From a virus (taxonomy: Duplodnaviria; Caudoviricetes): a stretch of DNA of 53,431 nucleotides. The stretch spans positions 1 through 53,431 of IMG/VR virus record IMGVR_UViG_3300014152_000002, one strand, 5' to 3'. Under the pieces are notes generated by a model. The model saw only the letters and a program-made list of their open reading frames with translations, was not told the origin of the DNA and did no database searches. The position numbers were made by a program, and so were the translations under genes. Positions 27,268 to 47,003 of this stretch are shown here, in pieces. The stretch's first letter is position 1, and the number at the start of each line of letters is the position of its first letter.

Positions 27268-28863
27268 ATGACATCATCTCTGGCCGCGCGGCCTTCTCTC
27301 GCGAAAATCCCCCCGCTTGCCGTTATCGAGGCCGAGATTGCTCGTCGCGCGCGGGAGCGTGAACGGATCGACGTCGAGAACAACGCTGCGGCGATTAGGG
27401 CGCGATGCCAGACGTTCGCCGGCTTCGTCCGCGAGGCATGGCATGTGCTTGAGCCGAACTCGACGTATATCCATTCTTGGCACATCGACGCTATTTGCTC
27501 ACATCTTGAGGCGGTTACGGACGGTCGGATTACGCGGCTTCTGATCAACGTCCCGCCAGGCTCGATGAAATCGCTACTTGTTTCTGTCCTCTGGCAGGCT
27601 TGGGAATGGGGGCCGAAGGGAATGCGCTCAATGCGCTACCTTTCGACGAGCTTCAACGATGTCCCGGTGAAGCGCGACGTTCGCAAGAGCCGCGACTTGA
27701 TGCTTTCGGAGTGGTATCGCGGGCTTTGGCCAGATGTCATCATGACCAGGACGGGCGAGACATCATTTGCCAACGCTTCGACAGGAACTCGGGAAGGCGT
27801 CGCCTTCGGGTCGCTTACCTCGCAGCGCGGCGACCGCCTACTGATTGACGATCCTCATTCGACCGAGACGGCGGAATCCGAGACCGAGCGCGCCACGACG
27901 ACGCGACGCTTCCGCGAGGGTGCCGTGAACCGCCTCAACGATCAAGCGCGGTCTGCCATCGTCGTTATCATGCAGCGCCTCCATTCCGAGGATGTTTCCG
28001 GGATCATCAAAAAATACGGGATGGAATTCGTCACGCTTTGCCTCCCGATGGAATTTGAGACGGCAAGCGCCTGCTCGACGGTAATTGGATTTTCGGACCC
28101 ACGCACGCACGAAGGTGAATTGCTCGACCCAGTGCGATTCCCGCGCGAAACGGTTGAAAAGCTCAAGCGCGACATGGGCTCTTATGCGTTCTCCGGGCAG
28201 TATCAGCAGCGCCCGGCCCCGCGCGACGGCGGATATTTCCAGAGTGAATGGCTTATCCCCGTCGATGCAATGCCGCCTCGGGACAGCCTGCGGATTTATG
28301 GGGGCTCTGACTATGCCGTCACGTCAAATGGCGGTGACTACACTGTTCATGCTGTCCTTGGCCTGGACGTTGATGGCAATCCGTGGCTTCTGGACCTTTG
28401 GCGCAAGCAGGCGGCGTCAGACGAGTGGGTCGTGGCGCTATGCGATCTGGTCAAGAAGTGGAAGCCGATGGCCTGGGCTGAAGAGTCCGGGCAGATCAAA
28501 AGCGGCGTCGGCCCGTTTCTGGAGCGAGAGATGCGTGCTCGTAAGGCCTACACCGCGCGAGAGCAATTCCCGACGAAGGGCGACAAGGCCGTCCGGGCAC
28601 AGTCGTTCCGAGGCCTGATCGCAACATGTGGGTTGAGAATACCAGCTCTGGTGCCTTGGCGGTCGGACTTCGAATCGGAGTTGATGAATTTCCCGGCCGG
28701 CGTTCATGATGACGCGGTGGACGCCTGTGGGCTAATTGGGCAGCTCCTCGACAAGATGATTTCAGGGCCGTCGCAGATCAAGCCGGAAGTCAATGCCCGC
28801 GACGACTACCGCGAAACTCGCTCGGTTGAGCGAGATGAGGCGCTTGATCCGCTCACGATATAG
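27268..28863 (+). CDS. terL: Terminase large subunit
   Basis: LLINVPPGSMKS, LLIDDPH, VVIMQRLH.ED, QYQQRP, SDYA and FPAGVHDDAVDA. Confidence 0.95.
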   Translation: MTSSLAARPSLAKIPPLAVIEAEIARRARERERIDVENNAAAIRARCQTFAGFVREAWHVLEPNSTYIHSWHIDAICSHLEAVTDGRITRLLINVPPGSMKSLLVSVLWQAWEWGPKGMRSMRYLSTSFNDVPVKRDVRKSRDLMLSEWYRGLWPDVIMTRTGETSFANASTGTREGVAFGSLTSQRGDRLLIDDPHSTETAESETERATTTRRFREGAVNRLNDQARSAIVVIMQRLHSEDVSGIIKKYGMEFVTLCLPMEFETASACSTVIGFSDPRTHEGELLDPVRFPRETVEKLKRDMGSYAFSGQYQQRPAPRDGGYFQSEWLIPVDAMPPRDSLRIYGGSDYAVTSNGGDYTVHAVLGLDVDGNPWLLDLWRKQAASDEWVVALCDLVKKWKPMAWAEESGQIKSGVGPFLEREMRARKAYTAREQFPTKGDKAVRAQSFRGLIATCGLRIPALVPWRSDFESELMNFPAGVHDDAVDACGLIGQLLDKMISGPSQIKPEVNARDDYRETRSVERDEALDPLTI

Positions 28864-28999
28864 GGCGGTGTTTGTCTGGATGACGCTTCCCCGCTTCGTA
28901 TCCAGCGAGAAATATTGCCCAAACAAGAACTCCTGACCCAATAAACATCAAAATCAGCGGAATGAACGCCGGGTCTGCCACAAGATCACTGATCGTCAT
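28853..28999 (-). CDS. Antisense single-TM small protein (48 aa)
   Basis: GGAGAAAC RBS; MTISDLVADPAFIPLILMFIGSGVLVWAIFLAGYEAGKRHPDKHRPIS. Confidence 0.6.
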   Translation of the reverse strand: MTISDLVADPAFIPLILMFIGSGVLVWAIFLAGYEAGKRHPDKHRPIS

Positions 29000-29180
29000 C
29001 ACGTTTCTCCTTCTGCCGTCTAAACCAAGTCCTTCGGCTCATGCCGAGCGCAAGCCAAGGCCGGGTCGCTTCCAATGTGGACGTGGCGTCTCCAAGTCTA
29101 GGCCGTCCACCATTACTGGCGCGCTTATGGCACAAACGTCAAGCGCACAGATGGCACTAAAGCAAGATGAGCAATTAAGC

Positions 29181-29414
29181 ATGAGCCCCACCTTCAAAGA
29201 TTGCACCAGCACAACCATCGCCTCAATCGTCCCCGGCCGCTCCGACGCGGAAGTAGCTGTTGATTTGCGAAAGCGCCTCGAAGCCGCTCTCGGCAATGTC
29301 GTCTCGATCATGGACGATGCGAACGAAAGCGGGCTTCAGGTATCGTTTCAGTTGGGGCGCGATAGTTACGGAAAGAACCGCATCAACGAACTTGGCATTG
29401 TACGCCCGCTGTGA
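29181..29414 (+). CDS. Hypothetical protein
   Basis: Coupled to the GNAT gene. Start uncertain. Confidence 0.55.
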   Translation: MSPTFKDCTSTTIASIVPGRSDAEVAVDLRKRLEAALGNVVSIMDDANESGLQVSFQLGRDSYGKNRINELGIVRPL

Positions 29415-29938
29415 TCCATGCGCGGGGCGTCATCCTTCGGCTCCCGACGCTTGGCGACTATCCGGCATGGCGGGCGCTGCGAGAGGCGTCCGCCGACTAT
29501 CTCGCCCGAGTGGAACCGGACTGGCAGCCGCCCGTGGACGAAGAGAGTTTCGCGCGTCAGGTCGCCGAGGCCGAAGCCGTCGCGCGGGAAAGCCGGGGCT
29601 ATTCGTTCCTGATATGCCGGCCGAACGGCGATCTTGTCGGCGGCGTTACGCTCGGACCGTTCGTCGATAGAGTCGGGTTGCTCGGAACATGGATCGGGAC
29701 TCCGTTCGTTGGGCGAGGTTACGCGGTGCGCGCGGTCGGCGTGGTTCTCGACATTGCGTTCGAAACGCTTGGGCTCAACAGCGTCGCGGCTTCTGTCCTT
29801 CCCGACAATGACCATTCGATAAGGGTGCTTGAGAACTTCGGATTCGAGCATGACCCGGATCGCAATATCGTGCTTCGCGTCGCGGACGCGCCGAAATTGC
29901 ATTGTGTCTACGTCCTGAAAAAGGAAGATCGACGATGA
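29411..29938 (+). CDS. GNAT N-acetyltransferase, RimJ-like
   Basis: LRLPTLGDYPAWRALREASADYLARVEPDW, LVGGVTL, GTWIG...GRGY and PDNDHSIRVLENFGF. Confidence 0.88.
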   Translation: MIHARGVILRLPTLGDYPAWRALREASADYLARVEPDWQPPVDEESFARQVAEAEAVARESRGYSFLICRPNGDLVGGVTLGPFVDRVGLLGTWIGTPFVGRGYAVRAVGVVLDIAFETLGLNSVAASVLPDNDHSIRVLENFGFEHDPDRNIVLRVADAPKLHCVYVLKKEDRR

Positions 29939-30681
29939 GAAAATTCGCATTGGCCGTCGCCGCGGCGATGTTCGCAACCGGCTCTCTGGCGCAGACGGTC
30001 GTCCTAGACCAGACGCCGGCCCCATCCCCGACGCAAAACACAATCTCCGAGCTGATGACGGAGAGTATCGCCGTTTCGGGCGGGACGCTGTATGTCAGCA
30101 CGCTCGCGCAGTCGCGCCAGAACGGCGGCAACGGCCAGCCGCAAGCGGTGTCGTCGGTGTTTGTTCCGACAGGCGCGGGCGGCGGCTTGGTTCGCTATCT
30201 CGCCTTGACGAACGCGAAGTCTGACCTCGGCGTCCCGATGACGGCCGCCGCCGGCACGCCAGCGGGCACGGTCGGCATATCGCGCTCGGTTGGCGCGAGC
30301 ATGGTTCTGGTCGGCGAGGCTACGTCGGGCGCCGCGAACAAGACCGACAAGGCGATGTTTGAGTTGGACCTGGCGGATACCTATGTCGCCGGCGCGTCCA
30401 TCGCGGTCACCGTCAACTGCAATTACTCTGGCACGGTCGTCACCGCGGCGAACACGACGATGACGGTTGCGGCTTACACCGAGGTCAACGGCGTCGAGAC
30501 GGCGATCTCCGGCATTACGGCGGCGCAGCAAATCCCGGCCACAGCGGGAAACCTGACGTTTACGATCCCCGGCACGGGCTTGGTTCCCGGCTCGCATGTC
30601 GCGGTTGAACTGGTGATGCTCGTTACGTCGGCGTCCGGCGCCGTGATTGGTTCCATCAATTCCGTCGCGATGACGATGTAA
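29935..30681 (+). CDS. Signal-peptide-bearing beta-rich protein (possible virion component)
   Basis: MRKFALAVAAAMFATGSLA|Q; Thr/Ala/Gly-rich body with a jelly-roll-like pattern. Confidence 0.7.
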   Translation: MRKFALAVAAAMFATGSLAQTVVLDQTPAPSPTQNTISELMTESIAVSGGTLYVSTLAQSRQNGGNGQPQAVSSVFVPTGAGGGLVRYLALTNAKSDLGVPMTAAAGTPAGTVGISRSVGASMVLVGEATSGAANKTDKAMFELDLADTYVAGASIAVTVNCNYSGTVVTAANTTMTVAAYTEVNGVETAISGITAAQQIPATAGNLTFTIPGTGLVPGSHVAVELVMLVTSASGAVIGSINSVAMTM

Positions 30682-30746
30682 TGGCTGAATCGACCGTTCA
30701 GTCCAACAATGCGAAAATAGAGTTTCGCGGCAAAGCGGAGCATGAA

Positions 30747-30950
30747 ATGCCAGTTGTGAGCAAGGCCCAAAACGCCGCGATGCATAGCGCCGCCGAGGGC
30801 AAATCAACGCTCGGGATACCGGCCAAGGTCGGGAAAGAGTTCGTCGCGGCGTCGCGCGGCAAGAGCGTCAAGAAGCTGCCGAAGCATGTCCGCAAGGCCG
30901 CGAAGCGCGGGCTGATCTCTCCCAAGCAGATGGCGAAAATGCATGACTGA
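30747..30950 (+). CDS. Small basic protein
   Basis: MPVVSKAQNAAMHSAAEGKSTLGIPAKVGKEFV...LPKHV, a recurring phage late-region peptide. GGAG RBS. Confidence 0.75.
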   Translation: MPVVSKAQNAAMHSAAEGKSTLGIPAKVGKEFVAASRGKSVKKLPKHVRKAAKRGLISPKQMAKMHD

Positions 30951-31356
30951 GTTCGGCCGCAGAATTTACACGCAAAATGTCGTGTTGCGCGGCTCTCTCT
31001 CGGAAGTGCAATGGCGCTATTTCCTTGTGCGCGCGGTCCAGGCGCTTGGGATGACGCCGGCCGGCGCTCCGGCGGTTTGGAGATATCCAACGGAAGACGG
31101 CAAGGGCGGAAACGGCATGACGGCGTGCCAGCCCCTTACCGAAAGTTTTATAGTCCTCGACACTTGGGATCAACACGACGGGGCTTATTTACACATTTCG
31201 TCCTGCCAGAAATTCGACATTACGGGGCTAATTGCGCCGGCTAGAGAATTTTCGCTCGGCGTCGATTTCATGGGTCGTTGCGAGACGCTTTCTCTCGACG
31301 CACCGATGCACGAGGGCGCTCCCAGCGATCCACGCTTTGACCCGGTAGAGGGGTGA
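30943..31356 (+). CDS. Pyruvoyl-dependent S-adenosylmethionine decarboxylase-like proenzyme
   Basis: G.T...PLTE|SFIVLDTW...GAYLHISSC.KFD aligns with the AdoMetDC pattern L.ESH...HTWPE......D...C. Confidence 0.75.
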   Translation: MTEFGRRIYTQNVVLRGSLSEVQWRYFLVRAVQALGMTPAGAPAVWRYPTEDGKGGNGMTACQPLTESFIVLDTWDQHDGAYLHISSCQKFDITGLIAPAREFSLGVDFMGRCETLSLDAPMHEGAPSDPRFDPVEG

Positions 31357-32732
31357 GCATGGAGAATCTGCGGAAGAAGACGGCCATTGTCTGGGAGCCC
31401 GGTGGCATATTCGTCGAGATCGCCAAGCGGCTTGCAAAGGACTTTGGGCGGGTTCTCTACTGTAACGATTGGGTCGGATCGTATCCGACTTCACGGGGCC
31501 TTGTTGTCGGCGCTGGCGACCCTGACTTTGAGCGCGTGGTCAACCCATGGGAGCATGCCGACGACATTGATCTTTGGGTCTTCCCAGACGTTTATAACGC
31601 TGGGTTGCACACTTACCTCCGATCACAAGGCAAGCGCGTTTGGGGATGTGGCTATCCTGGGTCGATGCTGGAGCTAGATCGCGTCTTCACAAAGAAGATG
31701 ATGGCAAAGGCGGGGCTCCCTGTCGGCGACTACAAAGAAATCAAGGGGATTGCCGCCCTCCGCAAGCACCTCAAGGCCAACGAAAAGCAGTTCGTCAAAT
31801 TGGGCGGACACCACGGCGAGCGCGGCGACATCGAGACGTTGAACGCGCTCAACTATGATCACGCCGAGCCAGTGTTGGACGAGGTGGAACATCGTCTCGG
31901 CGCGCGAGCGCACGTCATGGATTTTGTCGTCGAGGCGGCTATCGATCCTGCCATTGAGACCGGGTGGGATGGCGTGGCAGTTGACGGGAAATTCTGGTCG
32001 AAGACTATGTGCGGGATCGAGAAGAAAGATCAAGCTTACGTTTGCCGGGTCATTGATCGCGCCAAAGTCCCCGATCAGGTCTGGGACGTTAACCGCGCCG
32101 TATCCGCCTACATGCGCGAGAATGAATATCGGGGCTCTTGGAGCACGGAAGTCCGCGTGACGCCTGACGGCAATGGATATCTGATTGACGGCACAGCGAG
32201 ATGCGGGAGCCCGCCGAGCGAGTTGATGCAGATCATGTGCAACAACCTCTCCGAGGTCATGTGGTATGGCGCCGAGGGGATACTGATCGAGCCAGAATTT
32301 GACGGGAATGTGTGGGGCGCGGAAGTTCTCCTTCACTCGACATGGGCCGACCAGAATTACGCGCACATTCGCTTCCCGGACGAATACCGGGACAACATAA
32401 AACTGCGCCACTACACCGTTATCGACGGCGACATTTACGTTAGCCCGCAAGCGACAGGAATGCCGGAAATCGGTGCGGTCGTCGCAACTGGCAAGACGGC
32501 AAAAGAGGCAATAGATAAAGCCAAGAAAATCGCAGAGACCGTGGAAAGCCATCAGCTTGAAATCCCCGTTGAAGCGATGGACGATGCGCTTGAGGATTTG
32601 AAGAAAATACTGTCTCAGCCCGCGAGCGCTCCTATGTCGAAGGAACAGAGCGCGGCGGAAGAGGCCAAGAAGGCCGGCAAGATTTCACAGCGCCAGTATG
32701 ACAAGCTGGTCGAACGCAACGGATGGGCCTGA
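31353..32732 (+). CDS. ATP-grasp ligase, PurD (GAR synthetase)-like
   Basis: VWG....MLELDR.FTK..M.KAGLP...Y, FVK, FVVE..I, YRG....E and YLID.TAR.G.PP. Confidence 0.75.
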   Translation: MSMENLRKKTAIVWEPGGIFVEIAKRLAKDFGRVLYCNDWVGSYPTSRGLVVGAGDPDFERVVNPWEHADDIDLWVFPDVYNAGLHTYLRSQGKRVWGCGYPGSMLELDRVFTKKMMAKAGLPVGDYKEIKGIAALRKHLKANEKQFVKLGGHHGERGDIETLNALNYDHAEPVLDEVEHRLGARAHVMDFVVEAAIDPAIETGWDGVAVDGKFWSKTMCGIEKKDQAYVCRVIDRAKVPDQVWDVNRAVSAYMRENEYRGSWSTEVRVTPDGNGYLIDGTARCGSPPSELMQIMCNNLSEVMWYGAEGILIEPEFDGNVWGAEVLLHSTWADQNYAHIRFPDEYRDNIKLRHYTVIDGDIYVSPQATGMPEIGAVVATGKTAKEAIDKAKKIAETVESHQLEIPVEAMDDALEDLKKILSQPASAPMSKEQSAAEEAKKAGKISQRQYDKLVERNGWA

Positions 32733-32734
32733 AC

Positions 32735-33043
32735 ATGCCAAAAGGTGAGAGCGCGTCCAACAAGAGCGGGCTTAGCACGAACGCTCCCGAAGCAATGCAC
32801 GAATACAAGGAGCCACACGAACGCAAGGACGGTCCTTGGGAAGATTATGAATTGGAGCATGCCGGCCGCACTATCGATCACGCCGAGAAGATCAAGGCGA
32901 ATCCTAAATTAGTCGAGGCCGTCGCCAAGCATCACGAGAAAAAGGCCAAGATGCACCATAAGCTGGCAAGCGGCCTAAAGCATCACATGGCGCGCGGGCT
33001 GGTTTCAGAGAAGGCCCTCGCAAAGGCGTCGAAGCGTGGCTGA
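32735..33043 (+). CDS. His/Lys-rich small protein
   Basis: Coupled ORF directly before the portal gene. Confidence 0.7.
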   Translation: MPKGESASNKSGLSTNAPEAMHEYKEPHERKDGPWEDYELEHAGRTIDHAEKIKANPKLVEAVAKHHEKKAKMHHKLASGLKHHMARGLVSEKALAKASKRG

Positions 33044-34970
33044 GGTCTGGGACCAGGCTGCATCCGGCGACTCCGCGCGATGGGCGCCGCAGGTTGCCAC
33101 CCGCGAGAATAATGACAAATCTCCAGAGAATAGACCGCAGGATATTGACGAAGAAAAGCAACAGTTTCTTGATGTTCGTAAGTTAAGAACAATGTTCTTG
33201 GACTATTTGACCAGTAAGGTTGACGAGATCGAAGAACAAAAAGATGCTCGAAGGTATTACCATGGAGCTCATTGGACGCCTGAGCAAATAAATACTATGC
33301 GCCGCCGCCGCCAGCCGCCGCTCACTTGGAACCGCGTATCGCGCAAGATCAACCAGATTGTCGGCATTGTTGAGCGCGGGCGCTCCGACCCGAGGGCGCT
33401 CCCCCGCCACGTCCGCAGCGAGCAGGGCGCGGACCTCGCGACGCAGGTCATTCGCTACGTGCTGGAGGCCAATGACTTCAAGGGTATTGATCCTTGGTGC
33501 TTGCTTCAGTCAGGGATTGATGGCGTCGCCGGGGTGCAGCGCGTCCTGACTAAGGACGACAAAGGGAAGGTCGATATTGCCATTGCGTGGGTAGTTGGAG
33601 ACGAATATTTCTATGACCCGAAGTCCTATCGCGCCGACTTTTCCGATGCTCGTTATGAGGGCATAAGCAAGTGGTTCGATATCGATGAGGCGATTGAGCT
33701 TTTCCCTGACAAGGAAGACGAACTTCGCGGGCTCATTGAAGGCGACAGCGATCTCACGACGAACGCCGACCGCGAGTATAAGTGGGTCATCACTTCGTCG
33801 CAGCGCGTTCGCATCATTGAGCATTGGTATAAGAACCGAGGCAAATGGTGCTGGGCATTCTATGTCTCGACCGTCATCCTCGACCAAGGCGTTTCTCCAT
33901 TCTTTGACGAGCGCGGCAAGAGCGATCGATCATTCAATATGTTCTCGGTCGCGGTGGACCATGACGGCGACCGCTACGGCTTCGTCCGCAATCTGAAGGG
34001 GCCGCAGGACTCGCTCAACCAGAGCAAGTCGAAGCAATTGCATATCGCCAACTCGCGCCGGATCGTCGCGGACAAAGGCGCGGTTGATGATGTGGAGAAA
34101 GCCCGCATCGAAATGGCGCGGCCTGACGGCTATATCGAGGTCAATCCTGGCCGCACGCTAAAGCCTGACGACAAGCCGCAGGACGTGGCGGTCTTCGGCG
34201 AAATGGCTTCCGGTGCGGCGAACGAAATCGACCAGTTCGCCAGCATCAACATGGCCGTCCTATCCGGCGCGTCCATCGCGAACATATCGGGCCGGGCGAT
34301 CAAGTTGCTCCAACAGCCTGGAATGGCCGAGTTGGGGCCGTTCATTCTGAATTATCGCCAGTGGAAGCTGAAACTCTATCGGGCGATTTGGAACGCGGCG
34401 CAGCGTCATTGGACTTCGGAAAAGTGGATTCGCATATCTGACGACGAAAATCAAAAAAAGGCGTTCGTTCAGATCAACACCATGTCTCTCGACGAGTTTG
34501 GTCGACCTGTGATCGTCAACGCGCTCGGTGCGCTGGACGTGGACATTGTGCTTGAGGAAGGGCCGGACACGGGGTCTTTGACCGAAGACCTATTCGATAT
34601 GCTCAAGGGATTGCCGCCTGGCGCGGTCCCGCCCGCCGTGCTCATTGAGCTGTGGCCTGGGCCCCGCGCCGAGAAGCAGCGCCTCATGAAGATGATGTCT
34701 CCGCAGCCGACACCGCAGCAAATGGCGATGAAGCAGGCCGCTGATAAGTTGCAGATGGAGCACGCCGCGATCACAAACGCGAAAACTGCCGCTGACGCTC
34801 GCAAGTCGGATGCGCTGGCGTCGAAAGCCATCGCGGAAAGCCAACAGGCCGGTGCGCAGACGCAACTCGACGCCACAGAGTTGCAGCACAAGATTTGGAC
34901 CGAGGCGCTGGCATTGTTCCAGCCTCCGCAACAGACAGCCGCGCCAGGCCAAGCGCCCGCGCAGCAATAG
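33036..34970 (+). CDS. Portal protein (P22-like)
   Basis: YYHGAHWT.EQ...MRRR.QPPLTWNR, FYDP.S...DFSDARY, YGFVRNL..PQD..N, SGRAI..LQQ and a Gln-rich C-terminal barrel. Confidence 0.9.
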   Translation: MAEVWDQAASGDSARWAPQVATRENNDKSPENRPQDIDEEKQQFLDVRKLRTMFLDYLTSKVDEIEEQKDARRYYHGAHWTPEQINTMRRRRQPPLTWNRVSRKINQIVGIVERGRSDPRALPRHVRSEQGADLATQVIRYVLEANDFKGIDPWCLLQSGIDGVAGVQRVLTKDDKGKVDIAIAWVVGDEYFYDPKSYRADFSDARYEGISKWFDIDEAIELFPDKEDELRGLIEGDSDLTTNADREYKWVITSSQRVRIIEHWYKNRGKWCWAFYVSTVILDQGVSPFFDERGKSDRSFNMFSVAVDHDGDRYGFVRNLKGPQDSLNQSKSKQLHIANSRRIVADKGAVDDVEKARIEMARPDGYIEVNPGRTLKPDDKPQDVAVFGEMASGAANEIDQFASINMAVLSGASIANISGRAIKLLQQPGMAELGPFILNYRQWKLKLYRAIWNAAQRHWTSEKWIRISDDENQKKAFVQINTMSLDEFGRPVIVNALGALDVDIVLEEGPDTGSLTEDLFDMLKGLPPGAVPPAVLIELWPGPRAEKQRLMKMMSPQPTPQQMAMKQAADKLQMEHAAITNAKTAADARKSDALASKAIAESQQAGAQTQLDATELQHKIWTEALALFQPPQQTAAPGQAPAQQ

Positions 34971-35112: not shown

Positions 35113-36153
35113 ATGGCGAAAGACGACGATATTCTGCGCGATGCGATCATCGGCACGGAGAAAGAGGTATTCGGCGACGCCTTCGACAAGGAGGAATTGA
35201 CGCTCGACGAAACCGGCGACCGATCGATTGAAGCGATGGGCGAAGGTCTCGAAGGGCAGAGAGAACCCGAAGATGAAGGCGACGAAGAGGAAGATGTCGA
35301 GACGACAGAAGCCTCTGAGGACAAGCCGGAGGGAGAAGAGGCAGCTACCACCGAGACCACCGCGGAGGTTGCTGCGGAAGCCGCTCACGAAGCGCAGGGG
35401 CGTGTTCCGTCCGGGCGCCTACGTGAAGAGGCAGAGAAGACGCGCGCGGCCCAGGCCGAACGTGATGCGCTCAAGGCGCAACTCGAAGCGGAGAAGACGG
35501 CAAGCCAAAGAGCAATCGCCGAACTCAATGCGAAATTCGAGGGCTTCATTGCTTCCCAACGCCAGCCGGCGCAACCCGTTCAGCCGAAGCCTGAAGAGGC
35601 CACGCCCGACCTTTTCGAAGACCCGACCGCTTTCGTCAACCATCTGCAAAAAGGCTTCGACGCCAAACTCGCCGCCGTCAATCAGCAGATCAAGGAACAG
35701 CGCATCAACATCAGCATGGAGTTGTCTCGCACACGACATGGCGAGGCGTTCGATGCTGCGTTCGGCGCGCTCAAGTCTCTTGACGCCAACAACCCAGACA
35801 ACCGCCAGCTTGTGCAACGCCTCATAGACGCGCCGAACCCCGGCGAGGCCGTCGTGACGTGGCACAGGCGCAACGAGGCCCTTCGCGAGGTCGGCGACGA
35901 TCCCACGGCCTACAAGGCCAAGATCGCCGAAGACACCCGCAAGGCGCTGATGGCCGACCCGGAATTTCGCAAGCAGCTCGTCGCCGAACTCCGCGGCGAA
36001 GCGATGACCGGCGACAACGGCAGGCCCCGCACAACCGTCAAACTCCCGGCGTCCCTGAACCGGGCGGGCGGGAACAACACGCGCGCTCCGAATGATCTCG
36101 AAATTTATGACGGATCGGAAAGCGCGACATTCAGTTCGGCTTGGACAACCTAA
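35113..36153 (+). CDS. Capsid scaffolding protein
   Basis: Acidic N-terminus, VP..RLREE, coiled coil, PDLFEDP and LP.SL. Lies between portal and capsid genes. Confidence 0.82.
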   Translation: MAKDDDILRDAIIGTEKEVFGDAFDKEELTLDETGDRSIEAMGEGLEGQREPEDEGDEEEDVETTEASEDKPEGEEAATTETTAEVAAEAAHEAQGRVPSGRLREEAEKTRAAQAERDALKAQLEAEKTASQRAIAELNAKFEGFIASQRQPAQPVQPKPEEATPDLFEDPTAFVNHLQKGFDAKLAAVNQQIKEQRINISMELSRTRHGEAFDAAFGALKSLDANNPDNRQLVQRLIDAPNPGEAVVTWHRRNEALREVGDDPTAYKAKIAEDTRKALMADPEFRKQLVAELRGEAMTGDNGRPRTTVKLPASLNRAGGNNTRAPNDLEIYDGSESATFSSAWTT

Positions 36154-36229: not shown

Positions 36230-37396
36230 ATGGCCGCTTCCGTAACTCAGGCTAATAATAAACTCATCGTATTCCGTAAGCAGATTTTCCGGGAATACGT
36301 GCGCGAAAACTTGTTCAGCCCCTACATGGGGACGGACATCAATTCGATCATCCGCGTGATCCCCGATCTCGACAAGGGCGGCAAGAACGGCGGCGAGCAG
36401 ATCAACGTCCCGTTGATGGCCCGCCTTCAGGCCCAGGCCATCGCGTCAGGGCCGATGGTCGGAAACGAAGAGGCTCTCGACAACTACGGGATGCGTCTTT
36501 GGATCGATTGGGCGCGCAACGCCGTCGTCATCAACAACGCGGAAGAGCAGAAATCGTCCATCGACCTGTTCGCCGAAGCGAAGCCGATGCTCGTCGATTG
36601 GGGCAAGGAACTCCAGCGCGACGAGATTTGCGACGCCTTCTATGCTCTGCCGGCGCAATCGTCCCCGGCGGGCCTTGGCTCCAACAACGGCCAGCGCGTC
36701 AACGGCCTATTGTTCGACGCGGCCACGGCGGCGCAGCGCAACACCTGGATCACGGACAACGCGGACCGCATCCAGATCGGCCACTCCAACACGGCGAACC
36801 TGTCGGCGGGCAACTTCGCCGCGTCGATGACGGCCATCACCACGACGACGGACGTTATCTCCGGCGCCATTCTGATGACCATGAAGCGCCGCGCGAAGAG
36901 AGCCAACCCGCGCATCCGCCCGTTCAAGCTGAAGGAGAACGGAACGGAGTGGTTCGTGCTCTTCGTCGGGCAGGAACAGTTCCGCGACTTGGCGAACGAC
37001 ACCGACATCAAGACGGCAAACCAGAACTCCCGTGCGCGTGAGCAGCAGGGGTATATGAAGAATCCGATCTTCGTCGATGGCGATTTGCTCTACAACGGCA
37101 TCATCATCCGCGAAATCCCGGAGCTTTCGCTGCGGCTCCCCGTCTTCTATCAGACGGCGGGCGCCGCCAACGTCCAGGTCGCCCCGGCGTTCCTGTGCGG
37201 TCAGCAGGCGCAGGCTTGGTGCTGGGGCAAAATGCCAACCCCGACGTTTAGGAAAGAGGATGATTATCAGTTCCTTCGCGGCGCGGGCCTGAAGATGGCC
37301 TACGGCATTGGCAAGCTCGCCAAGCTGACCCCGGCCAACAACTTCAAGGAATGGGGTGTATTCACTGGTTTTTTCACGGCTATCGCCGACGCGTGA
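36230..37396 (+). CDS. Major capsid protein
   Basis: FREYVREN.FSPYMG, GNEEALD, KNPIF..GDLLYNGIIIREIPE, LCGQQA and DY.F..G. Strong codon bias. Confidence 0.9.
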   Translation: MAASVTQANNKLIVFRKQIFREYVRENLFSPYMGTDINSIIRVIPDLDKGGKNGGEQINVPLMARLQAQAIASGPMVGNEEALDNYGMRLWIDWARNAVVINNAEEQKSSIDLFAEAKPMLVDWGKELQRDEICDAFYALPAQSSPAGLGSNNGQRVNGLLFDAATAAQRNTWITDNADRIQIGHSNTANLSAGNFAASMTAITTTTDVISGAILMTMKRRAKRANPRIRPFKLKENGTEWFVLFVGQEQFRDLANDTDIKTANQNSRAREQQGYMKNPIFVDGDLLYNGIIIREIPELSLRLPVFYQTAGAANVQVAPAFLCGQQAQAWCWGKMPTPTFRKEDDYQFLRGAGLKMAYGIGKLAKLTPANNFKEWGVFTGFFTAIADA

Positions 37397-37458
37397 TGAA
37401 TGACGGCGGCGCGCTGATGCGCCGCCTCTTCCTTCAATTCGAACAGACGAGAAAACCC

Positions 37459-38061
37459 ATGCTGAAAAACTTCCACAAACTCGCGACTGCGCTCGCCATT
37501 GCGATGGCGTTTGTCTTCGCGCCGATCATCTCGGCTAGCGCCTACACAATTGACCCGCAGGTCTACGCCGGGACGAAGATAATCCCGATGCGGACATGCT
37601 CGGCGACGCAGAACGTCTGCTATACCCGCGTAACGGTGAACTTCAACGACCCAAACATCAAGAACGGTATTTGGTTCGCGTCGATTCCGGCGAGCGCTTA
37701 CATCCTGGCCATCGACGCGGACACGACCACCGCGTGGAACGCGACTACGACCAACGTCCTCACGCTTGGCGTAACGCAAGCGAGCGCCAACGAACTCATG
37801 GCGGACTGTGGCACGGCAACCGCGTGTGTCAGCAACAACACAACCACTATCGCGACCGGCGTCGTTCACTTGACGACAGCGGCCGGCCTCGGCGTGGCGG
37901 TGACAGCGAATACGTCGCTCCAAAAAGCCTACAGTTCGTCGGGGACAAGCGTAGTGCCTGCATATCTTGCTCTCTATGCGAAATATACGCAGACCGGCAC
38001 GGCGGCGACGACTGGCTCCACGACCTTCGTTATTACTTGGGCAAAATCGGACGACCAGTAA
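37459..38061 (+). CDS. Capsid decoration/cement-like protein with N-terminal signal peptide
   Basis: Directly after the capsid gene. R.TVNFND......ASIPASAYIL......TTAWNATTTNVLTLG resembles decoration proteins. Starts MLKNFHKLATALAIAMAFVFAPIISASA|Y. Confidence 0.68.
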   Translation: MLKNFHKLATALAIAMAFVFAPIISASAYTIDPQVYAGTKIIPMRTCSATQNVCYTRVTVNFNDPNIKNGIWFASIPASAYILAIDADTTTAWNATTTNVLTLGVTQASANELMADCGTATACVSNNTTTIATGVVHLTTAAGLGVAVTANTSLQKAYSSSGTSVVPAYLALYAKYTQTGTAATTGSTTFVITWAKSDDQ

Positions 38062-38063
38062 AA

Positions 38064-38597
38064 ATGGCCTGGCCGAAAGGGCGTCCTCGGAAGGCGAGAG
38101 TTGATCTCCCGCCTTCCATCACCATTACCGAGGAACCAGATATGCAAGACGAGTTCGAGGAATTTGTGACCTATCTCCCCGGTGAAGGCGATCCGGTTAA
38201 GACCAAATGGCGGGGGGTCGAATTCATTGCCAACATCCCGACTCGCGTTGCGAACAAAGACCACATCGAGGCGGCGCGCGCCAATCGCTTCTACCGCGTC
38301 GGCAATGACGCGCCGCAAGAGAACCCAAACCGAGCGCCGACTGACGCGATGGAATACCGCGGGCATGTCCTCGGATGGATGGAAGGCGTTTCGACGATTG
38401 AGCAGCTCGTCAAGAATTGGGCTCAAGATCGCGACCTCCGGCTGAAATGCGAAATCGGCCACGACGACATCTCCTATCTCGGAACTCTGATTGAGCCGAA
38501 GCTGCGCCAGATGCGGCTGTCGGAGGGCTTGAGCGATGCCCAGACGGCCGAAATATGGATGCGGTATGGCGTTTTTGAATTGCCCTGGAGGGCCTGA
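38064..38597 (+). CDS. Hypothetical head-module protein
   Basis: VTYLPGEGDP...KWRG.EF.AN.P...NRFY.V. Confidence 0.65.
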   Translation: MAWPKGRPRKARVDLPPSITITEEPDMQDEFEEFVTYLPGEGDPVKTKWRGVEFIANIPTRVANKDHIEAARANRFYRVGNDAPQENPNRAPTDAMEYRGHVLGWMEGVSTIEQLVKNWAQDRDLRLKCEIGHDDISYLGTLIEPKLRQMRLSEGLSDAQTAEIWMRYGVFELPWRA

Positions 38598-39068: not shown

Positions 39069-39890
39069 ATGGCTGAGATAGACATAGAGCATTTGCCTTT
39101 CACGCGCAAAGAGGCTCTAGAAACCGGATCGAAGCATTTTTTCACCGGCGAGGCATGCGGCAAGGGGCATATCTCGCCAAGGCTCGCATCGAATGGCATA
39201 TGCACCGGCTGCACTCGCGCTTGGTATGCCGCTAACGCAGAGAAGAGCATCGCGGCGGCAAAGGCTTGGCAAGCAGCCAATCCTGAGAGGCTAAAAGAAA
39301 CAAATCGAGCATATCGCCAGGCCAATTCGGATAAGATTCGCGAGAACAATCACGCTTGGCTGGCAGAGAACCAAGAAAGAAACCGTGAAACACAGCGCGC
39401 ATATCGTGCGGCGCATCGGGATAAATATCGGGAACACAACCGATCTTGGACAAAGAATAACCCGGATAAGGTTCGCGAGTCGATTCGTGCTTGCCAAGCA
39501 GCCAAGCCAGAAAAATATCGAGAGATGAAGGCCGCCTATCGTGCATCTCATCCTGAAATGATGAGAAAATGCAGGAAGGCTTGGAAACAGGCCAACCCTG
39601 GCAAGATCGCAGAACTTGACCGCAATCGCCGCGCCCGTAAACGCAATGCCGAAGGCAATCACACAGCAGCCGATGTTGCGCGCATCCGCCAGGCGCAGAA
39701 AGACCACTGCGCCATGCCAGATTGCCGATCAAAGCTGAATGGAGAAGGCCACGTGGATCACATCATCGCGCTCAGTAAGGGAGGATCGAATTGGCCCCGC
39801 AACCTCCAGCTCCTATGCGAGCCGTGCAATCTCTCTAAGAGCGCGCGTGATCCGATTGAATTCGCACAATCGCGTGGGATGCTAATCTAA
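39069..39890 (+). CDS. HNH endonuclease
   Basis: TRKEA...G.KHFFTG..C.KGH...R......C..C, a helical repeat, and C...C......HVDHII.LS.GG.N...NLQLLC..CN.SK. Confidence 0.92.
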   Translation: MAEIDIEHLPFTRKEALETGSKHFFTGEACGKGHISPRLASNGICTGCTRAWYAANAEKSIAAAKAWQAANPERLKETNRAYRQANSDKIRENNHAWLAENQERNRETQRAYRAAHRDKYREHNRSWTKNNPDKVRESIRACQAAKPEKYREMKAAYRASHPEMMRKCRKAWKQANPGKIAELDRNRRARKRNAEGNHTAADVARIRQAQKDHCAMPDCRSKLNGEGHVDHIIALSKGGSNWPRNLQLLCEPCNLSKSARDPIEFAQSRGMLI

Positions 39891-45318: not shown

Positions 45319-47003
45319 TGCCGGGACCGTGGGAAAACTACACCCCTCAGCCTTCGGGCGCGCAGCCGGCGGAAGATGGACCATGGACCAAATATCAGCC
45401 AGCGGCGCATCAAGGCGGCGCACAGGCTCCAAGCATGTCGTGGGGAGAAGTAGGGTCACAAGCGCTCCATAACGCCCCGGAAAGCGCCGGACGATTTATC
45501 GAAGGCATTGCCCAGCCATTCATGCACCCCATCGATACCGCAACGGCGCTTTCTAATGTCGGAACTGGCGCGATTGCAATGGGGGGCTCGGCGCTCGCGG
45601 CGGCTGTTCCGAGCGAGGCCCTGCCCGAGAAAACCTTCGGCGAGCGCTATCAGCACGGGCTTAATGTCGTAAAGGAAAAATCCGGCGCGTCCGAGGCTTA
45701 TCCCGAGGCTGTGGGTAAATACTTCACTGATCGCTACGGAAGCATCGAGGGCTTCAAAAAGGCGGTCGCGACTGATCCAGTTGGCGTGATCGGTGATCTT
45801 AGCGCGGGGCTAACTGCCGGCGGCGCAGCGGTCGCCCGCGCTCCCGGCGTCATCGGTAAGGTTGGCGAGACGGCACGCGCGGCGGGGGATATTCTCAACC
45901 CCGCAATGAGACCGGCGAAGGCTGCTGGCGCGGCGGGAGAGGAAGCGGCGAGGCTCCGGCGCCCTATCGAGGCTCCAACGAGCGATGAGCTTTACGAGGC
46001 TGCGAGCGCCGCATACGAGCACCCGTCCATAAAAGAGATTGTCGTCAAGCCTAGCGCCTTCAAAACGTGGAAGGACGAGCTTCTCGCCACGAACGATATC
46101 GTGGATGAGGATTTGTCGCCAAAAACATTCAAGATACTAAATCGTCTTGATGAACCGCCAGAAGGATCATTCCTTGACGGGCGGAGCATCCAGTCTCTTC
46201 GGCGCAAGCTCGGGCAAGCGGCGGGTTCCGTCGATCCTACCGAAAGGAAGGCAGCGCGGGACGCCATCTCGTCCCTGGACGACTTTCTCGCGGACATTCC
46301 TAAAAAGGCGGTCTTGAAAGGCGACCCCAAGGCGGTTTCCGCCGCTCTTGAGGAGGCGAGAGGGAACTACGCGGCGGCAAAACGTAGCGACGTAATCGAG
46401 GGAAAACTTGAGGCGGCGGAACTTCAAGCTGGGAGCGCCAACAGTGGGATGAATCTCGATAACGCGACGCGCCAGCGCCTTAAAGACGTTCTCAAGAGCG
46501 ATAAGTTGCGCCGTGGATTTTCCCAAGAAGAACTTACGCAGATGCGGAAGATCGTCACGGGAACCCCCGTTGAAAACATCACGCGTCGCGTCGCGAATAT
46601 GCTTGGCGGCGGGGGAGGGATGGGTGCCACCGTCACCGGCGCTCTTGGCGGGGCCGCTGGCGCCGCCGTGGGGCATGTCCCCGGCGCGATGATCGGGGCG
46701 GCGATCCCCGCCGCCGCTGGGTATGCGCTCAAGAAACTGAGCGCGGCCATGTCGCAGGCAGATGTCCGTAGGTTGCAAGAGATGGTTCGGTCTAGATCCC
46801 CGCTTGGCCGTCAAATGCAGTCCTCCTTGGGTAAGTTCGGGAAGGCGAGCACAGCGGCCAAAGGGTCACCAACGTCCAAGAATATAGCCCGCTTCATGCT
46901 GGCGGCGAGAAATCTATCCACGAACCTTGCCGATGCCGGGATGAACGTCCCTCCCGAGGATATTGCCGGTGGCTTTGCGTCGGCGGACGGAAACGAGAAA
47001 TAG
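45318..47003 (+). CDS. DNA ejection protein
   Basis: N-terminal GPW..Y repeats, Ala/Gly-rich hydrophobic segments, third gene in the ejection cluster. Confidence 0.68.
   Translation: MPGPWENYTPQPSGAQPAEDGPWTKYQPAAHQGGAQAPSMSWGEVGSQALHNAPESAGRFIEGIAQPFMHPIDTATALSNVGTGAIAMGGSALAAAVPSEALPEKTFGERYQHGLNVVKEKSGASEAYPEAVGKYFTDRYGSIEGFKKAVATDPVGVIGDLSAGLTAGGAAVARAPGVIGKVGETARAAGDILNPAMRPAKAAGAAGEEAARLRRPIEAPTSDELYEAASAAYEHPSIKEIVVKPSAFKTWKDELLATNDIVDEDLSPKTFKILNRLDEPPEGSFLDGRSIQSLRRKLGQAAGSVDPTERKAARDAISSLDDFLADIPKKAVLKGDPKAVSAALEEARGNYAAAKRSDVIEGKLEAAELQAGSANSGMNLDNATRQRLKDVLKSDKLRRGFSQEELTQMRKIVTGTPVENITRRVANMLGGGGGMGATVTGALGGAAGAAVGHVPGAMIGAAIPAAAGYALKKLSAAMSQADVRRLQEMVRSRSPLGRQMQSSLGKFGKASTAAKGSPTSKNIARFMLAARNLSTNLADAGMNVPPEDIAGGFASADGNEK

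Follow-up and report, generated by a model that had tools for sequence, protein, structure and literature searches.

The window, a complete phage genome of 53,431 bp, carries three enzyme genes and a set of small Lys-rich genes that are tightly coupled, all on the plus strand, between the genes for the large terminase subunit (27268..28863, plus strand; phrog_38 E 1e-84, with Pfam Terminase_6C at 20.1 bits, below its cut-off) and a P22-type portal protein (33036..34970, plus strand; Pfam P22_portal E 1.1e-95), which is where the initial annotation had placed them. Every junction from orf150 through to the portal gene is either overlapping or abutting (GTGA, ATGA, TAATG, ATGACTGA and GTGA). Further downstream on the same strand, the product of 35113..36153 is acidic (pI 4.6) and has no family match in Pfam or PHROG; from the position of its gene between those for the portal and the capsid, and from its composition, it is probably the scaffolding protein. 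The major capsid protein is encoded at 36230..37396 (plus strand; Pfam Phage_capsid_3 E 6.8e-40, phrog_334). The interval holds one further gene, orf259 (29935..30681, plus strand), that was absent from the initial annotation.

The genes for orf150 (28962..29414, plus strand), the stop of which overlaps the GNAT start within GTGA, and orf259, which shares an ATGA overlap with the GNAT stop, belong to no family in Pfam, PHROGs, NCBIfam or PADLOC, and homologues are found at only 4 (by tblastn) and 6, respectively, of 81 related IMG/VR viral loci. The orf259 product is rich in Thr, Ala and Gly and has a signal-peptide-like N-terminus (MRKFALAVAAAMFATGSLAQ), as judged by eye rather than by a predictor; the gene is probably a moron encoding a secreted protein. 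Between these two lies the gene for the GNAT N-acetyltransferase (29411..29938, plus strand), which is of the Acetyltransf_3 type (Pfam 73.3 bits versus a cut-off of 25.4) and falls far under every NCBIfam equivalog cut-off; at 13 bits versus 190 for the RimJ equivalog, its earlier description as RimJ-like is not supported. GNAT homologues are present at 13 of the 81 loci (11 of the 64 with at least 2 kb of upstream sequence), all of them close relatives of the window, and in relatives the slot between terminase and K89 is filled by orf259-like genes or, at 10 loci, by an O-antigen-ligase-like gene. Given its rarity and the failure to reach any equivalog, the GNAT appears to be accessory and to occupy a moron slot, outside the conserved module. 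It had been proposed that GNAT, decarboxylase and ligase constitute one three-step late pathway modifying virion proteins or packaged DNA, and all three genes do share one overlapping terminase–portal operon, with the GNAT a genuine Acetyltransf_3 member. Nevertheless, such a pathway is improbable, as the GNAT is confined to close relatives whereas the decarboxylase–ligase pair is adjacent at 58 loci, the slot accepts other cargo, and a PHROG scan of 37 further genome ORFs found no hydroxymethylase-type DNA-hypermodification genes. Hence, the anticipated co-occurrence of the three enzymes holds for the decarboxylase and ligase, but not for the GNAT.

The SpeD-like gene (30943..31356, plus strand) encodes a putative self-processing pyruvoyl decarboxylase with the class 1 AdoMetDC fold, an assignment drawn from Pfam, profile and AlphaFold/Foldseek comparisons. 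The Pfam AdoMet_dc score is barely above the cut-off (26.6 versus 25); however, a 32-sequence profile matches the solved AdoMetDC proenzymes 2iii, 1tlu and 1vr7 (E 2e-5 to 2e-3), and the AlphaFold model (pLDDT 91.3) has five PDB matches at E<=0.001, exclusively AdoMetDC proenzymes, with T. maritima 1vr7 giving a Foldseek E of 4.7e-6 and a TM of 0.62. On alignment to solved SpeD structures, T-E-S68-F and D73-T-W occupy the places of ESH and HTW, Cys88 coincides with the SpeD Cys, and the predicted cleavage site is Glu67-Ser68. Only G5, P49, G58, S68 and C88 are invariant across the 32 sequences (mean column identity 29%). The processing His of SpeD is Asp73 in the window protein and, therefore, self-cleavage is not assured; the family nonetheless appears to keep an acid/base residue at the position of T. 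maritima His68, where inspection of the alignment blocks by eye finds Asp in most sequences, His in 4 and Glu in 1. The Glu of the HTWPE motif, which we take from the T. maritima structure to be the residue that binds the ribose of AdoMet, is replaced by Gln in the window protein and by Asp or another residue in relatives. Moreover, the complete genome contains no spermidine synthase (PF01564), although the same search was positive in 10 of 14 control genomes. Taken together, the changed residues and the missing spermidine synthase suggest that SAM is an unlikely substrate. The initial annotation had already recorded the retained E|S site and Cys, both motif changes and the missing synthase, and had suspected a different substrate, and our analysis supports it on each of these points, as it does on the SpeD, PurD and GNAT fold assignments.

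That the SpeD-like enzyme still decarboxylates SAM, thereby starving SAM-dependent restriction or other defences, is a notion prompted by its AdoMetDC homology and its retained Ser and Cys. We regard it as highly improbable in view of the replaced HTWPE Glu, the change from ESH to ESF and the marginal Pfam score; additionally, the gene belongs to a late operon, whereas anti-restriction functions are early, and an obligate ligase partner would be left unexplained. The enzyme might instead decarboxylate Arg, Orn or Lys to supply, late in infection, a polyamine as a counter-ion for the packaged DNA, with the ligase conjugating the polyamine in the manner of glutathionylspermidine synthetase. Phage SpeD homologues without AdoMetDC activity are described as having become ADC or ODC (Li et al.; PMC9992855, PMC10407285), and both the lack of spermidine synthase and the late, head-linked expression context would suit this proposal. 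It is doubtful, however, since a tblastn search of 50,697 phage records finds no match to the SpeD-like clade, from which we infer its absence from the enzymes tested in PMC9992855 and PMC10407285, and since term searches of these two articles return 0 occurrences of an ATP-grasp partner. Furthermore, a free polyamine would not need a ligase, and the lineage-specific tail and the intein-bearing member of the ligase family suggest that the module is centred on the ligase rather than on the decarboxylase.

The PurD-like ATP-grasp carboxylate–amine ligase (31353..32732, plus strand) comprises a four-domain core, approximately residues 1–420, followed by a C-terminal tail. It is without a Pfam or PHROG match, and its NCBIfam PurD score is 30.5 versus a cut-off of 288 (TIGR00877); the best structural matches of its AlphaFold model (pLDDT 87.6) are PurD structures (3mjf, E 7.7e-23; 2yw2, TM 0.70/0.75), with which it shares 15-17% identity. 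Residues K149, E194, E266, D279, R283 and G285-S286-P287-P288 are invariant in the family alignment, and the GSPP loop region aligns with the NcRfGDPE loop of PurD. At the ATP-grasp Mg site, the Asn that PurD has in NcR is replaced by Thr or Cys in the ligase family, and the PurD N-domain region gives no sequence alignment. Based on the model, the ligase is a very diverged PurD relative. The family runs to 907 cluster representatives at E<=1e-30, almost none from cultured phages, and relatives have inteins in the active-site loop, P0065 with an intein-like 354-aa insert within the D279/R283 loop; both features may be read as signs of selection on the ligase.

A SpeD-like gene lies immediately 5′ of the ligase gene at 58 of the 81 viral loci (57 of the 74 having at least 500 bp of upstream sequence), and also at 3 of 12 genome loci, Bradyrhizobium among them. 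At 10 of those 74 loci, both a SpeD-like gene and c7, a small alternative partner, are absent, as they are, judged by HMM, alongside the homologue from a Thermocrinis virus, indicating that the ligase can stand without the decarboxylase. This uncharacterised pair recurs across hundreds of uncultured phages. Relatives of the ligase carry fused domains that would speak for small phosphorylated metabolites or nucleotides more than for a function in the capsid: some have a HAD domain, which in P0166 exceeds the Pfam HAD_2 and Hydrolase cut-offs and which weakly resembles the T4 polynucleotide kinase 3′-phosphatase (PDB 5uj0 E 0.033; phrog_415 E 1.3e-4), and one, P0218, has an acylphosphatase domain (52.5 bits). 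PurD and SpeD both use ribose-linked substrates. By descent, therefore, as well as by virtue of these fusions, the target of the pair might be a nucleotide, a nucleoside conjugate or the end of a nucleic acid: the ligase would attach an amino acid to an amino- or phospho-sugar nucleotide, much as PurD does with phosphoribosylamine, and the SpeD-like enzyme would decarboxylate an amino acid linked to a nucleoside, in the way that SpeD decarboxylates SAM, yielding a modified nucleotide, modified DNA or a molecule that is toxic or mimics a signal. We consider this unlikely, as the PurD N-domain region is not alignable, the HAD similarities are weak, and Pfam and PHROG reveal no nucleotide-metabolism partner genes in the operon of the window.

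The small basic proteins flank the pair and are indeed Lys-rich, as first described. K89 (30681..30950, plus strand; 14 Lys in 89 aa, pI 10.4) matches phrog_16759, a PHROG family of unknown function (E 2.8e-5), whereas K106 (32723..33043, plus strand; 16 Lys in 106 aa, pI 9.5) is helical, and its gene overlaps both the ligase stop and the portal start. Their likeness is confined to a 19-column helix–loop–helix motif at the C-terminus of K89 (KRGLISPKQMAKM) and of K106 (ARGLVSEKALAKA), which is also found in the tail of the ligase (32640..32720, plus strand; residues 430–456). In the AlphaFold model, helices 430–440 and 446–456 of this tail are joined by the turn A-G-K-I-S (441–445). The turn Gly and Ser are invariant in all three families (G442 and S445 in the ligase, G77 and S80 in K89, and G92 and S95, the only invariant columns, in K106). 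A strict regular expression for the motif which, like that for the K89 N-terminus, was composed after the sequences had been seen, occurs three times in the six-frame window, at precisely these C-termini; in shuffles the mean is 0.46, and three are reached in 1 of 200. The SpeD-like protein and the putative scaffold lack the hairpin, and profiles of the motif match no solved scaffold at the sequence level. Where at least 3 kb of downstream sequence is available, all 37 loci with a tailed ligase have the portal type of the window and all 18 with a tail-less one are without it; small motif-bearing ORFs accompany 48 of 55 ligases with the tail versus 0 of 21 without. This association is a single lineage split, not many independent events. 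At tail-less loci, the neighbours of the pair are DarB-like, Alt-like and minor-head or virion proteins, or else terminase and portal. Additionally, the N-terminus of K89 (residues 1–24) aligns with capsid protein residues 1–24 (36230-36301, plus strand; hhalign E 4.6e-5). The corresponding regular expression matches 54 of 7,065 ORFs, namely 21 capsid proteins, 32 small upstream ORFs, 29 of which also end in the helix–loop–helix, and 1 other.

In P22, a helix–loop–helix of the scaffold is described as binding the coat N-arm (PMC9965877), and the internal proteins of T4 are reported to have only a capsid targeting sequence in common (PMC3012670). By analogy with P22 scaffold–coat binding, the bearers of the motif may dock to the capsid. 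The motif could, less plausibly, be a DNA-binding or oligomerisation hairpin, or else a recognition site through which the ligase engages K89 and K106 as substrates, in which case its own tail would be a pseudo-substrate. Such roles might be entertained because basic, helical proteins carry the motif, translation of K106 is coupled to that of the ligase, and the combination of ATP-grasp, small peptides and GNAT recalls graspetide clusters; they are unlikely, as the invariant Gly and Ser are helix C-cap and N-cap residues rather than Lys, Glu or Asp residues that could serve as acceptors, the residues at the C-terminus itself are variable, the enzyme resembles PurD and not RimK, and tail-less ligases in phages without such peptides retain the same active site.

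Overall, the explanation that we favour, with a probability of roughly one-half, is that the interval is a three-layer mosaic within one late operon that would be expressed together with the head genes. Its core would be the two-enzyme module that is found widely among uncultured phages, in which the SpeD-like protein most likely self-cleaves at Glu67|Ser68 to generate a pyruvoyl group and would then decarboxylate a non-SAM amino acid or amino-acid conjugate to a primary amine, whereas the PurD-like ligase most likely converts a carboxylate to an acyl phosphate and couples this to an amine, giving an amide, with the two enzymes acting in either order. A second, lineage-specific docking layer would have arisen as the ligase gained the basic C-terminal helix–loop–helix common to K89 and K106, K89 also copying the start of the capsid protein. 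By analogy with the scaffolding protein of P22 and with the capsid targeting sequence of T4, the motif would dock its bearers to the capsid protein N-terminus or to the scaffold inside the procapsid, in which case the ligase and the two basic proteins may be loaded into the capsid as packaged cargo. The third layer, orf150, GNAT and orf259, would consist of exchangeable accessory genes.

The nearest known relatives of the decarboxylase are class 1 SpeD (PF02675; T. maritima 1tlu/1vr7 and A. aeolicus 2iii) and its ADC/ODC derivatives (PMC9992855, PMC10407285). Like SpeD, it is a small single-domain proenzyme (about 120–140 aa) of the same fold, with the Glu-Ser site and catalytic Cys at matching positions and, like the derivatives, it is found in phages without spermidine synthase. 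It differs from SpeD in having ESF for ESH, Asp for the processing His and no conserved HTWPE Glu, in scoring at the Pfam threshold and in having no match in cultured phage records; unlike the derivatives, it is always paired with a PurD-like ligase, a pairing absent from PMC9992855 and PMC10407285 by term searches. The ligase resembles PurD (glycinamide ribonucleotide synthetase; TIGR00877; 3mjf, 2yw2, 1gso) in its four-domain ATP-grasp architecture, including the C-domain, and in the aligned R-x-G-x-P loop and acidic Mg ligands, but departs from it in the replaced Mg-site Asn, the unalignable N-domain, the additional C-terminal helix–loop–helix of the window's lineage, and its setting in phage head modules rather than a purine operon. 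Microviridin/graspetide clusters likewise unite an ATP-grasp enzyme, a GNAT and small peptides in one operon. Graspetide ligases, however, are of the RimK type, with Thr/Ser/Lys and Asp/Glu core motifs as their targets, whereas the operon of the window has a PurD-like ligase and a non-conserved GNAT, and in its small peptides only the turn Gly and Ser are invariant. The proposed docking motif is closest to two signals that load proteins into procapsids: like the coat-binding domain of the P22 scaffolding protein, it is a short, terminal, basic helical hairpin, albeit with no sequence similarity to a solved scaffold and with no hairpin in the putative scaffold of the window; like the T4 capsid targeting sequence, which is N-terminal and is cleaved, it is a short terminal signal common to otherwise unrelated small basic proteins. 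In the window, this one motif is borne by an enzyme and two small basic proteins, the genes for which lie beside those for portal, scaffold and capsid.

The interval between the terminase and portal genes is best accounted for by a conserved decarboxylase plus putative amide-ligase module, which is surrounded by accessory genes and by a putative docking layer peculiar to this lineage. Seven genes lie between the large terminase gene (27268-28863), which forms the left boundary, and the portal gene (33036-34970), which forms the right: orf150 (28962-29414), a GNAT gene (29411-29938), orf259 (29935-30681), the gene for the small, basic, Lys-rich protein K89 (89 aa; 30681-30950), a SpeD-like gene assigned through PF02675 and its fold (30943-31356), an ATP-grasp gene whose modelled product is PurD-like (31353-32732; hereafter, the ligase), and the gene for a second basic, Lys-rich protein, K106 (106 aa; 32723-33043). 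All nine are on the + strand, and the initial annotation was right to place three enzyme genes and Lys-rich small proteins between terminase and portal. Every junction from orf150 to the portal gene is either overlapping or abutting, and, therefore, the genes form one translationally coupled operon that runs on into the head genes.

The record as a whole is a complete viral genome, 53,431 bp long, that carries direct terminal repeats; a scan of its full length found no tRNA genes. The genes are those of a tailed phage of the P22-portal type, with small and large terminase, portal, putative scaffold, capsid protein (36230-37396), head-closure and tail genes, and it further encodes Erf, an exonuclease, NinB, a RuvC-like resolvase, a primase-helicase and a DNA methyltransferase. 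A PHROG scan of 37 further window ORFs showed no genes for DNA hypermodification, whether of the hydroxymethylase type or another. Just 3' of the capsid gene, two long + strand ORFs (37351-38061 and 37596-38597) overlap by ~470 bases, both being without a family match, and an HNH/endonuclease VII-like gene (39069-39890) lies inside the structural module, between the head genes and the head-closure gene. A 561-aa protein encoded among the tail/ejection genes (45318-47003), away from the capsid gene itself, matches phrog_21712 'major head protein' (E 2.9e-21), and a 173-aa ORF of the early region (9204-9725) matches phrog_1128 'enoyl-CoA hydratase/carnithine racemase-like' (E 1.5e-21). The host is likely to be an alphaproteobacterium of the Rhizobiales/Bradyrhizobium kind, because relatives of the ligase gene occur in a Rhizobiales MAG (59% identity), in Bradyrhizobium sp. 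YR681 (48%) and on the chromosome of B. oligotrophicum S58 (46%). At least half of the words sampled from positions 29400-33050 are found in contigs of nine wetland or peat metagenome runs dating from 2017 to 2020, two possible source samples being left out.

The SpeD-like protein scores only marginally against Pfam PF02675 (26.6 bits; gathering cut-off 25), and precomputed matches to the same family exist for 12 of its 24 close homologues. A profile of 32 relatives matches solved AdoMetDC proenzymes (2iii, E 2e-5), and the structural model (pLDDT 91.3) superposes on the Thermotoga maritima enzyme (1vr7; Foldseek E 4.7e-6, TM 0.62); indeed, all five Foldseek matches at E≤0.001 are AdoMetDC proenzymes, and no other family is represented. 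The relationship is visible only by profile and fold comparison, since single-sequence searches returned nothing from the PDB and nothing from cultured phages. Just five columns are invariant in the alignment (32 sequences; 29% mean column identity), namely, Gly5, Pro49, Gly58, Ser68 and Cys88. Ser68 aligns with the ES of 2iii and 1tlu, and would thus be the pyruvoyl-forming Ser of a predicted Glu-Ser cleavage site, whereas Cys88 is aligned with the catalytic Cys of SpeD (Cys83 in T. maritima). That these two residues should be among only five invariant positions suggests that the protein is a functioning pyruvoyl enzyme and not a remnant with a purely structural role.

The remaining motif positions have diverged. 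In the window, Asp73 replaces the His of the HTW motif, which in T. maritima is His68 and is needed for self-processing; by eye, in the alignment blocks, most of the 32 sequences have Asp in this column, four have His and one has Glu, and an acid/base group would, on this alignment, be kept at the processing position. The Glu of HTWPE, which binds the AdoMet ribose, is Gln77 in the window and Asp or other residues in the relatives. No match to spermidine synthase (PF01564) was found in the complete phage genome, a control search being positive in 10 of 14 genomes. SAM is, therefore, an unlikely substrate, given both the variability of the ribose-binding Glu and the missing synthase. These results agree with the initial annotation in each particular: that ES and Cys are kept, that ESF stands for ESH and DTW for HTW, that spermidine synthase is absent, and that the changed residues hint at a different substrate. 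Among longer SpeD-like forms, there was one protein of 302 aa and none fused to the ligase, which constitutes weak evidence.

The model of the ligase (pLDDT 87.6, pTM 0.84) has the N-B-A-C ATP-grasp fold and matches PurD structures across four domains, ahead of biotin carboxylases (3mjf, Foldseek E 7.7e-23; 2yw2_A, TM 0.70/0.75 over 452 columns), which bears out its earlier description as PurD-like. By sequence, the two are barely related (profile E 3e-4): the ligase belongs to no Pfam or PHROG family, and it reaches only 30.5 bits against the PurD equivalog TIGR00877, for which the cut-off is 288. Its invariant residues include Lys149, Glu194, Glu266, Asp279, Arg283 and G285-S-P-P. The first three would, from their strand positions in the model, belong to the ATP-grasp catalytic set (ATP-binding Lys, hinge Glu and Mg ligands); Asp279, Arg283 and Gly285 align to the Glu, Arg and Gly of the PurD loop viEfNcRfGDPE, with Thr or Cys at the Asn position. 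The N-domain cannot be aligned to that of PurD by sequence, and the gene resides in phage head modules instead of a purine-pathway context; judged on the N-domain as a whole and on gene location, the phosphoribosylamine and glycine sites of PurD are probably missing, and its purine setting is absent. The ligase is thus PurD-like, and not a PurD. In its family, 1,509 cluster representatives (50% identity) are reached at E≤1e-3, 1,235 at E≤1e-10 and 907 at E≤1e-30; some of the weakest of the 1,509 may be true PurDs. Among 50,697 phage records, it is matched only in two assembled Aquificae viruses, and no close viral structure was found in BFVD (best TM 0.41/0.50).

Certain relatives are interrupted. 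In one cluster representative (P0065), a 354-aa insert lies between residues 279 and 281 (window numbering), that is, within the catalytic Asp279/Arg283 loop, and it has intein-like boundaries, with a Cys after the break and Asn-Cys at its end. Among the 150 best representatives, around ten have lengths of 745-793 aa and match the profile in two separate stretches; in the four that were scanned, LAGLIDADG or intein-splicing domains were matched, only one of them above the cut-off. Because the break between stretches does not fall at a constant profile position, inteins may have invaded several times independently. As inteins tend to occupy the conserved sites of important genes, the insertion in the catalytic loop supports a functional ligase active site. 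Intein-like inserts also interrupt the ligase in P0146, P0159, P0179, P0180, P0187, P0192, P0262, P0263, P0280 and P0286. Other representatives are fused at the N-terminus to HAD domains (P0166, P0185, P0188, P0212 and P0257) or, in P0218, to an acylphosphatase domain instead (52.5 bits). The HAD domain of P0166 passes the Pfam cut-offs for HAD_2 and Hydrolase, and those of P0185 and P0257 weakly resemble the phosphatase of T4 polynucleotide kinase (PDB code: 5uj0, E 0.033; phrog_415, E 1.3e-4). Together, the fusions are a weak hint that the chemistry involves phosphorylated small molecules or nucleotides.

When IMG/VR was searched with the profile of the ligase, 206 encoding stretches were recovered, of which the best 80, together with the loci of a first scan, gave a set of 81 loci; counts over this set are not independent, as L002 and L007 are one contig entered twice and several loci are near-identical. 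Using an iterated HMM, a SpeD-like gene was found directly upstream of the ligase in 58 of the 81, or in 57 of the 74 with at least 500 bp of upstream sequence. The decarboxylase and ATP-grasp genes, therefore, do co-occur in other phages, and as neighbours. By contrast, a GNAT homologue was present in 13 of the 81 (11 of the 64 with at least 2 kb upstream), all of them close relatives of the window. Given this confinement and the far greater frequency of the pair, we conclude that the core is the decarboxylase-ligase pair and that the GNAT is an exchangeable passenger; the proposal that the latter belongs to a three-enzyme pathway is, accordingly, not upheld. The GNAT does have an Acetyltransf_3 domain (73.3 bits; cut-off 25.4), and in this sense the label RimJ-like is apt, but it falls far short of the NCBIfam equivalogs for RimJ, the ribosomal protein S5-alanine acetyltransferase (13 bits against 190), and for the spermidine N1-acetyltransferase SpeG (15.8 against 218). 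In the same best-80-plus-first-scan set, homologues of orf259 and orf150 were found at only six and four of the 81 loci, respectively. At 10 loci, the slot between terminase and module is occupied by an O-antigen-ligase-like membrane protein (Wzy_C 23 bits, under the cut-off), as at L025:3180-4364, L048:526-1713 and eight further loci. Morons, perhaps ones that convert the serotype, may insert preferentially at this position.

A second partner, c7, stands beside the ligase with, or in place of, the SpeD-like gene. It is a family of ~134-aa proteins with the motifs H-E-x-x-E and EPG..APY..EH, it has no family match, and the window lacks it. It adjoins the ligase at 14 of the 81 viral loci (best 80 of 206 plus first scan), examples being L055:6558-6962, L064:6543-7004 and L078:1438-1836 in addition to 11 further IMG/VR loci, and at 4 of 12 genome loci (L087, L088, L089 and L093). 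Either SpeD-like or c7 genes are found at 64 of the 74 loci with upstream sequence, and both at six. One representative, P0215, is a possible ligase-c7 fusion or read-through. Assignment of c7 to Peptidase_M78 or as SprT-like was rejected, the ESM Atlas scores (0.77-0.79) being below the tool's own bar; for both c7 and K106, this resource returned only unnamed viral clusters. PADLOC gave no matches for c7 or for any of the seven interval proteins, and there is no PHROG family for c7, the SpeD-like protein, the ligase, K106, orf150 or orf259.

The ligase, K89 and K106 end alike, in ...EEAKKAGKISQRQYDKLVERNGWA, ...KAAKRGLISPKQMAKMHD and ...HMARGLVSEKALAKASKRG, respectively. A strict pattern for this tail, composed after the sequences had been seen, has exactly three matches when the window is read in all six frames, and a stop codon lies 3-8 residues from each; dinucleotide shuffles yield a mean of 0.46, and 1 of 200 reaches three. 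Comparative invariance is the stronger evidence: neither the turn Gly nor the turn Ser varies in the ligase tail (Gly442 and Ser445) or in the K89 family, and the two are the sole invariant columns of the K106 family. The likeness between K89 and K106 is restricted to 19 motif columns (hhalign E 6.2e-5). In the ligase model, the turn AGKIS separates helices 430-440 and 446-456, and, with a pI of 9.5, the tail matches the P22 gp8-type description of a C-terminal basic helix-loop-helix; on our own reading of the model, the Gly would be a helix C-cap and the Ser an N-cap. Profiles of K106 and K89 matched only designed helical bundles and chance entries in the PDB, and no scaffold protein.

Among 76 loci with a complete ligase gene, the tail is present in 55 and absent from 21. 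Where at least 3 kb of downstream sequence is available, a homologue of the window's portal is found at all 37 loci with the tail and at none of the 18 without, and small ORFs ending in the motif occur within 3.5 kb at 48/55 tail-bearing loci versus 0/21 tail-less ones. This association shows joint presence and not repeated co-evolution, since it stems from one lineage split. An alternative end shared by tail-less ligases, ...FGIKL, was considered as a second docking motif and rejected, as it is not common to any neighbouring ORF. In tail-less lineages, the pair is still located within virion modules: it adjoins DarB-like/minor-head polyproteins and 2,150-aa methyltransferase proteins at L061 and L079, an Alt-like protein at L046 and a 1,317-aa virion protein at L055, and it is directly upstream of terminase and portal at L058. 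In a Thermocrinis virus, the portal gene precedes the ligase homologue (BK013347.1, 9615-11578; annotated as a phosphoribosylaminoimidazole carboxylase) by two genes, and the terminase and capsid genes come after both; the homologue is flanked by small conserved hypothetical genes, none of which is matched by the SpeD-like HMM or by that of c7. The virion-module locations of the pair fit a late or virion-linked role, action on the particle, in packaging or post-injection all being compatible.

K89 has a further resemblance, to the capsid protein. It starts with MAESTVQSNNAKIEFRGKAEHEMP and the capsid protein with MAASVTQANNKLIVFRKQIFREYV, and the two profiles align over exactly these 24 N-terminal residues (E 4.6e-5). 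A recent duplication of the 5' end of the capsid gene was rejected as its origin, as the DNA is not alike. Within the window, the start pattern is found only in K89 and the capsid gene, and none of 200 shuffles reaches two; across the 81 loci, it picks out 54 of 7,065 ORFs: 21 encode capsid proteins, one is unrelated, and 32 are small and precede the ligase gene. Of these 32 small ORFs, 29 also end in the tail motif.

Overall, the observations of the initial annotation were confirmed and its interpretation survives in part, through the fold assignments and the pair, though without the GNAT as a pathway member. The two enzymes are new variants of known enzyme kinds, neither AdoMetDC nor PurD proper; what is new comprises the shared tail motif, the capsid-like start of K89, the c7 partner, the HAD and acylphosphatase fusions, and the inteins. 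The pair spans ~900 clusters at 50% identity, with hosts, as labelled in genome records, from Bradyrhizobium to Bacteroides, Armatimonadota and Aquificae, and it has neither a cultured model phage nor a Pfam family; it is one of the commoner unexplained enzyme modules in phage structural operons. Keyword searches of the literature, and of PMC9992855 and PMC10407285 (Li et al.), PMC7824862 and PMC5512222, gave no description of an AdoMetDC-like and ATP-grasp pair in phages. Solving the chemistry of the pair would probably bring to light a novel late-infection small molecule or, alternatively, a novel modification of the virion or of DNA, and the known evolution of SpeD (SAM, arginine, ornithine) would gain a third fate. 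Experiments are within reach, as there are prophage copies in Bradyrhizobium strains that can be cultivated.

In graspetide and microviridin biosynthesis, a RimK-type ATP-grasp enzyme modifies a precursor peptide at conserved core motifs of Thr/Ser/Lys and Asp/Glu. A graspetide-like RiPP cluster was rejected here: the ligase is PurD-like, whereas that of graspetides is RimK-type, and the C-terminal part of the small proteins conserves only the turn Gly and Ser.

Parallels are to be found in capsid assembly. According to PMC9965877, the C-terminal helix-loop-helix of the P22 scaffolding protein binds the N-arm of the coat protein, with Arg293 and Lys296 set against Asp14, Glu15 and Glu18; according to PMC3012670, the otherwise unrelated internal proteins of T4 have in common only a capsid targeting sequence, which directs them into the scaffolding core. 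By analogy, the tail would be the element by which its three bearers (the ligase, K89 and K106) attach to the N-terminus of the capsid protein or to the scaffold, and K89, bearing both the capsid-like start and the tail, could serve as an adaptor or decoy. A bolder reading, to which we would give roughly one chance in four, is that this is natural cargo loading: the helix-loop-helix would recognize the capsid N-arm that K89 mimics, and would pack the ligase and the two basic proteins into the procapsid; the ligase, fed with an amine by the decarboxylase, might then make a new amide in the capsid or on injection into the next host. If the motif is real, nature would have provided a P22-like capsid with a signal for enzyme encapsidation, a matter of interest to phage biology (injected enzymes) as well as to the engineering of capsid nanoreactors. 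The T4 enzyme Alt uses the same capsid targeting signal as the internal proteins, and engineered enzymes have been loaded into P22 shells through the scaffold C-terminus. If the cargo-loading reading is true, the system would be a phage-made counterpart of both engineered P22 enzyme nanocages and T4 Alt.
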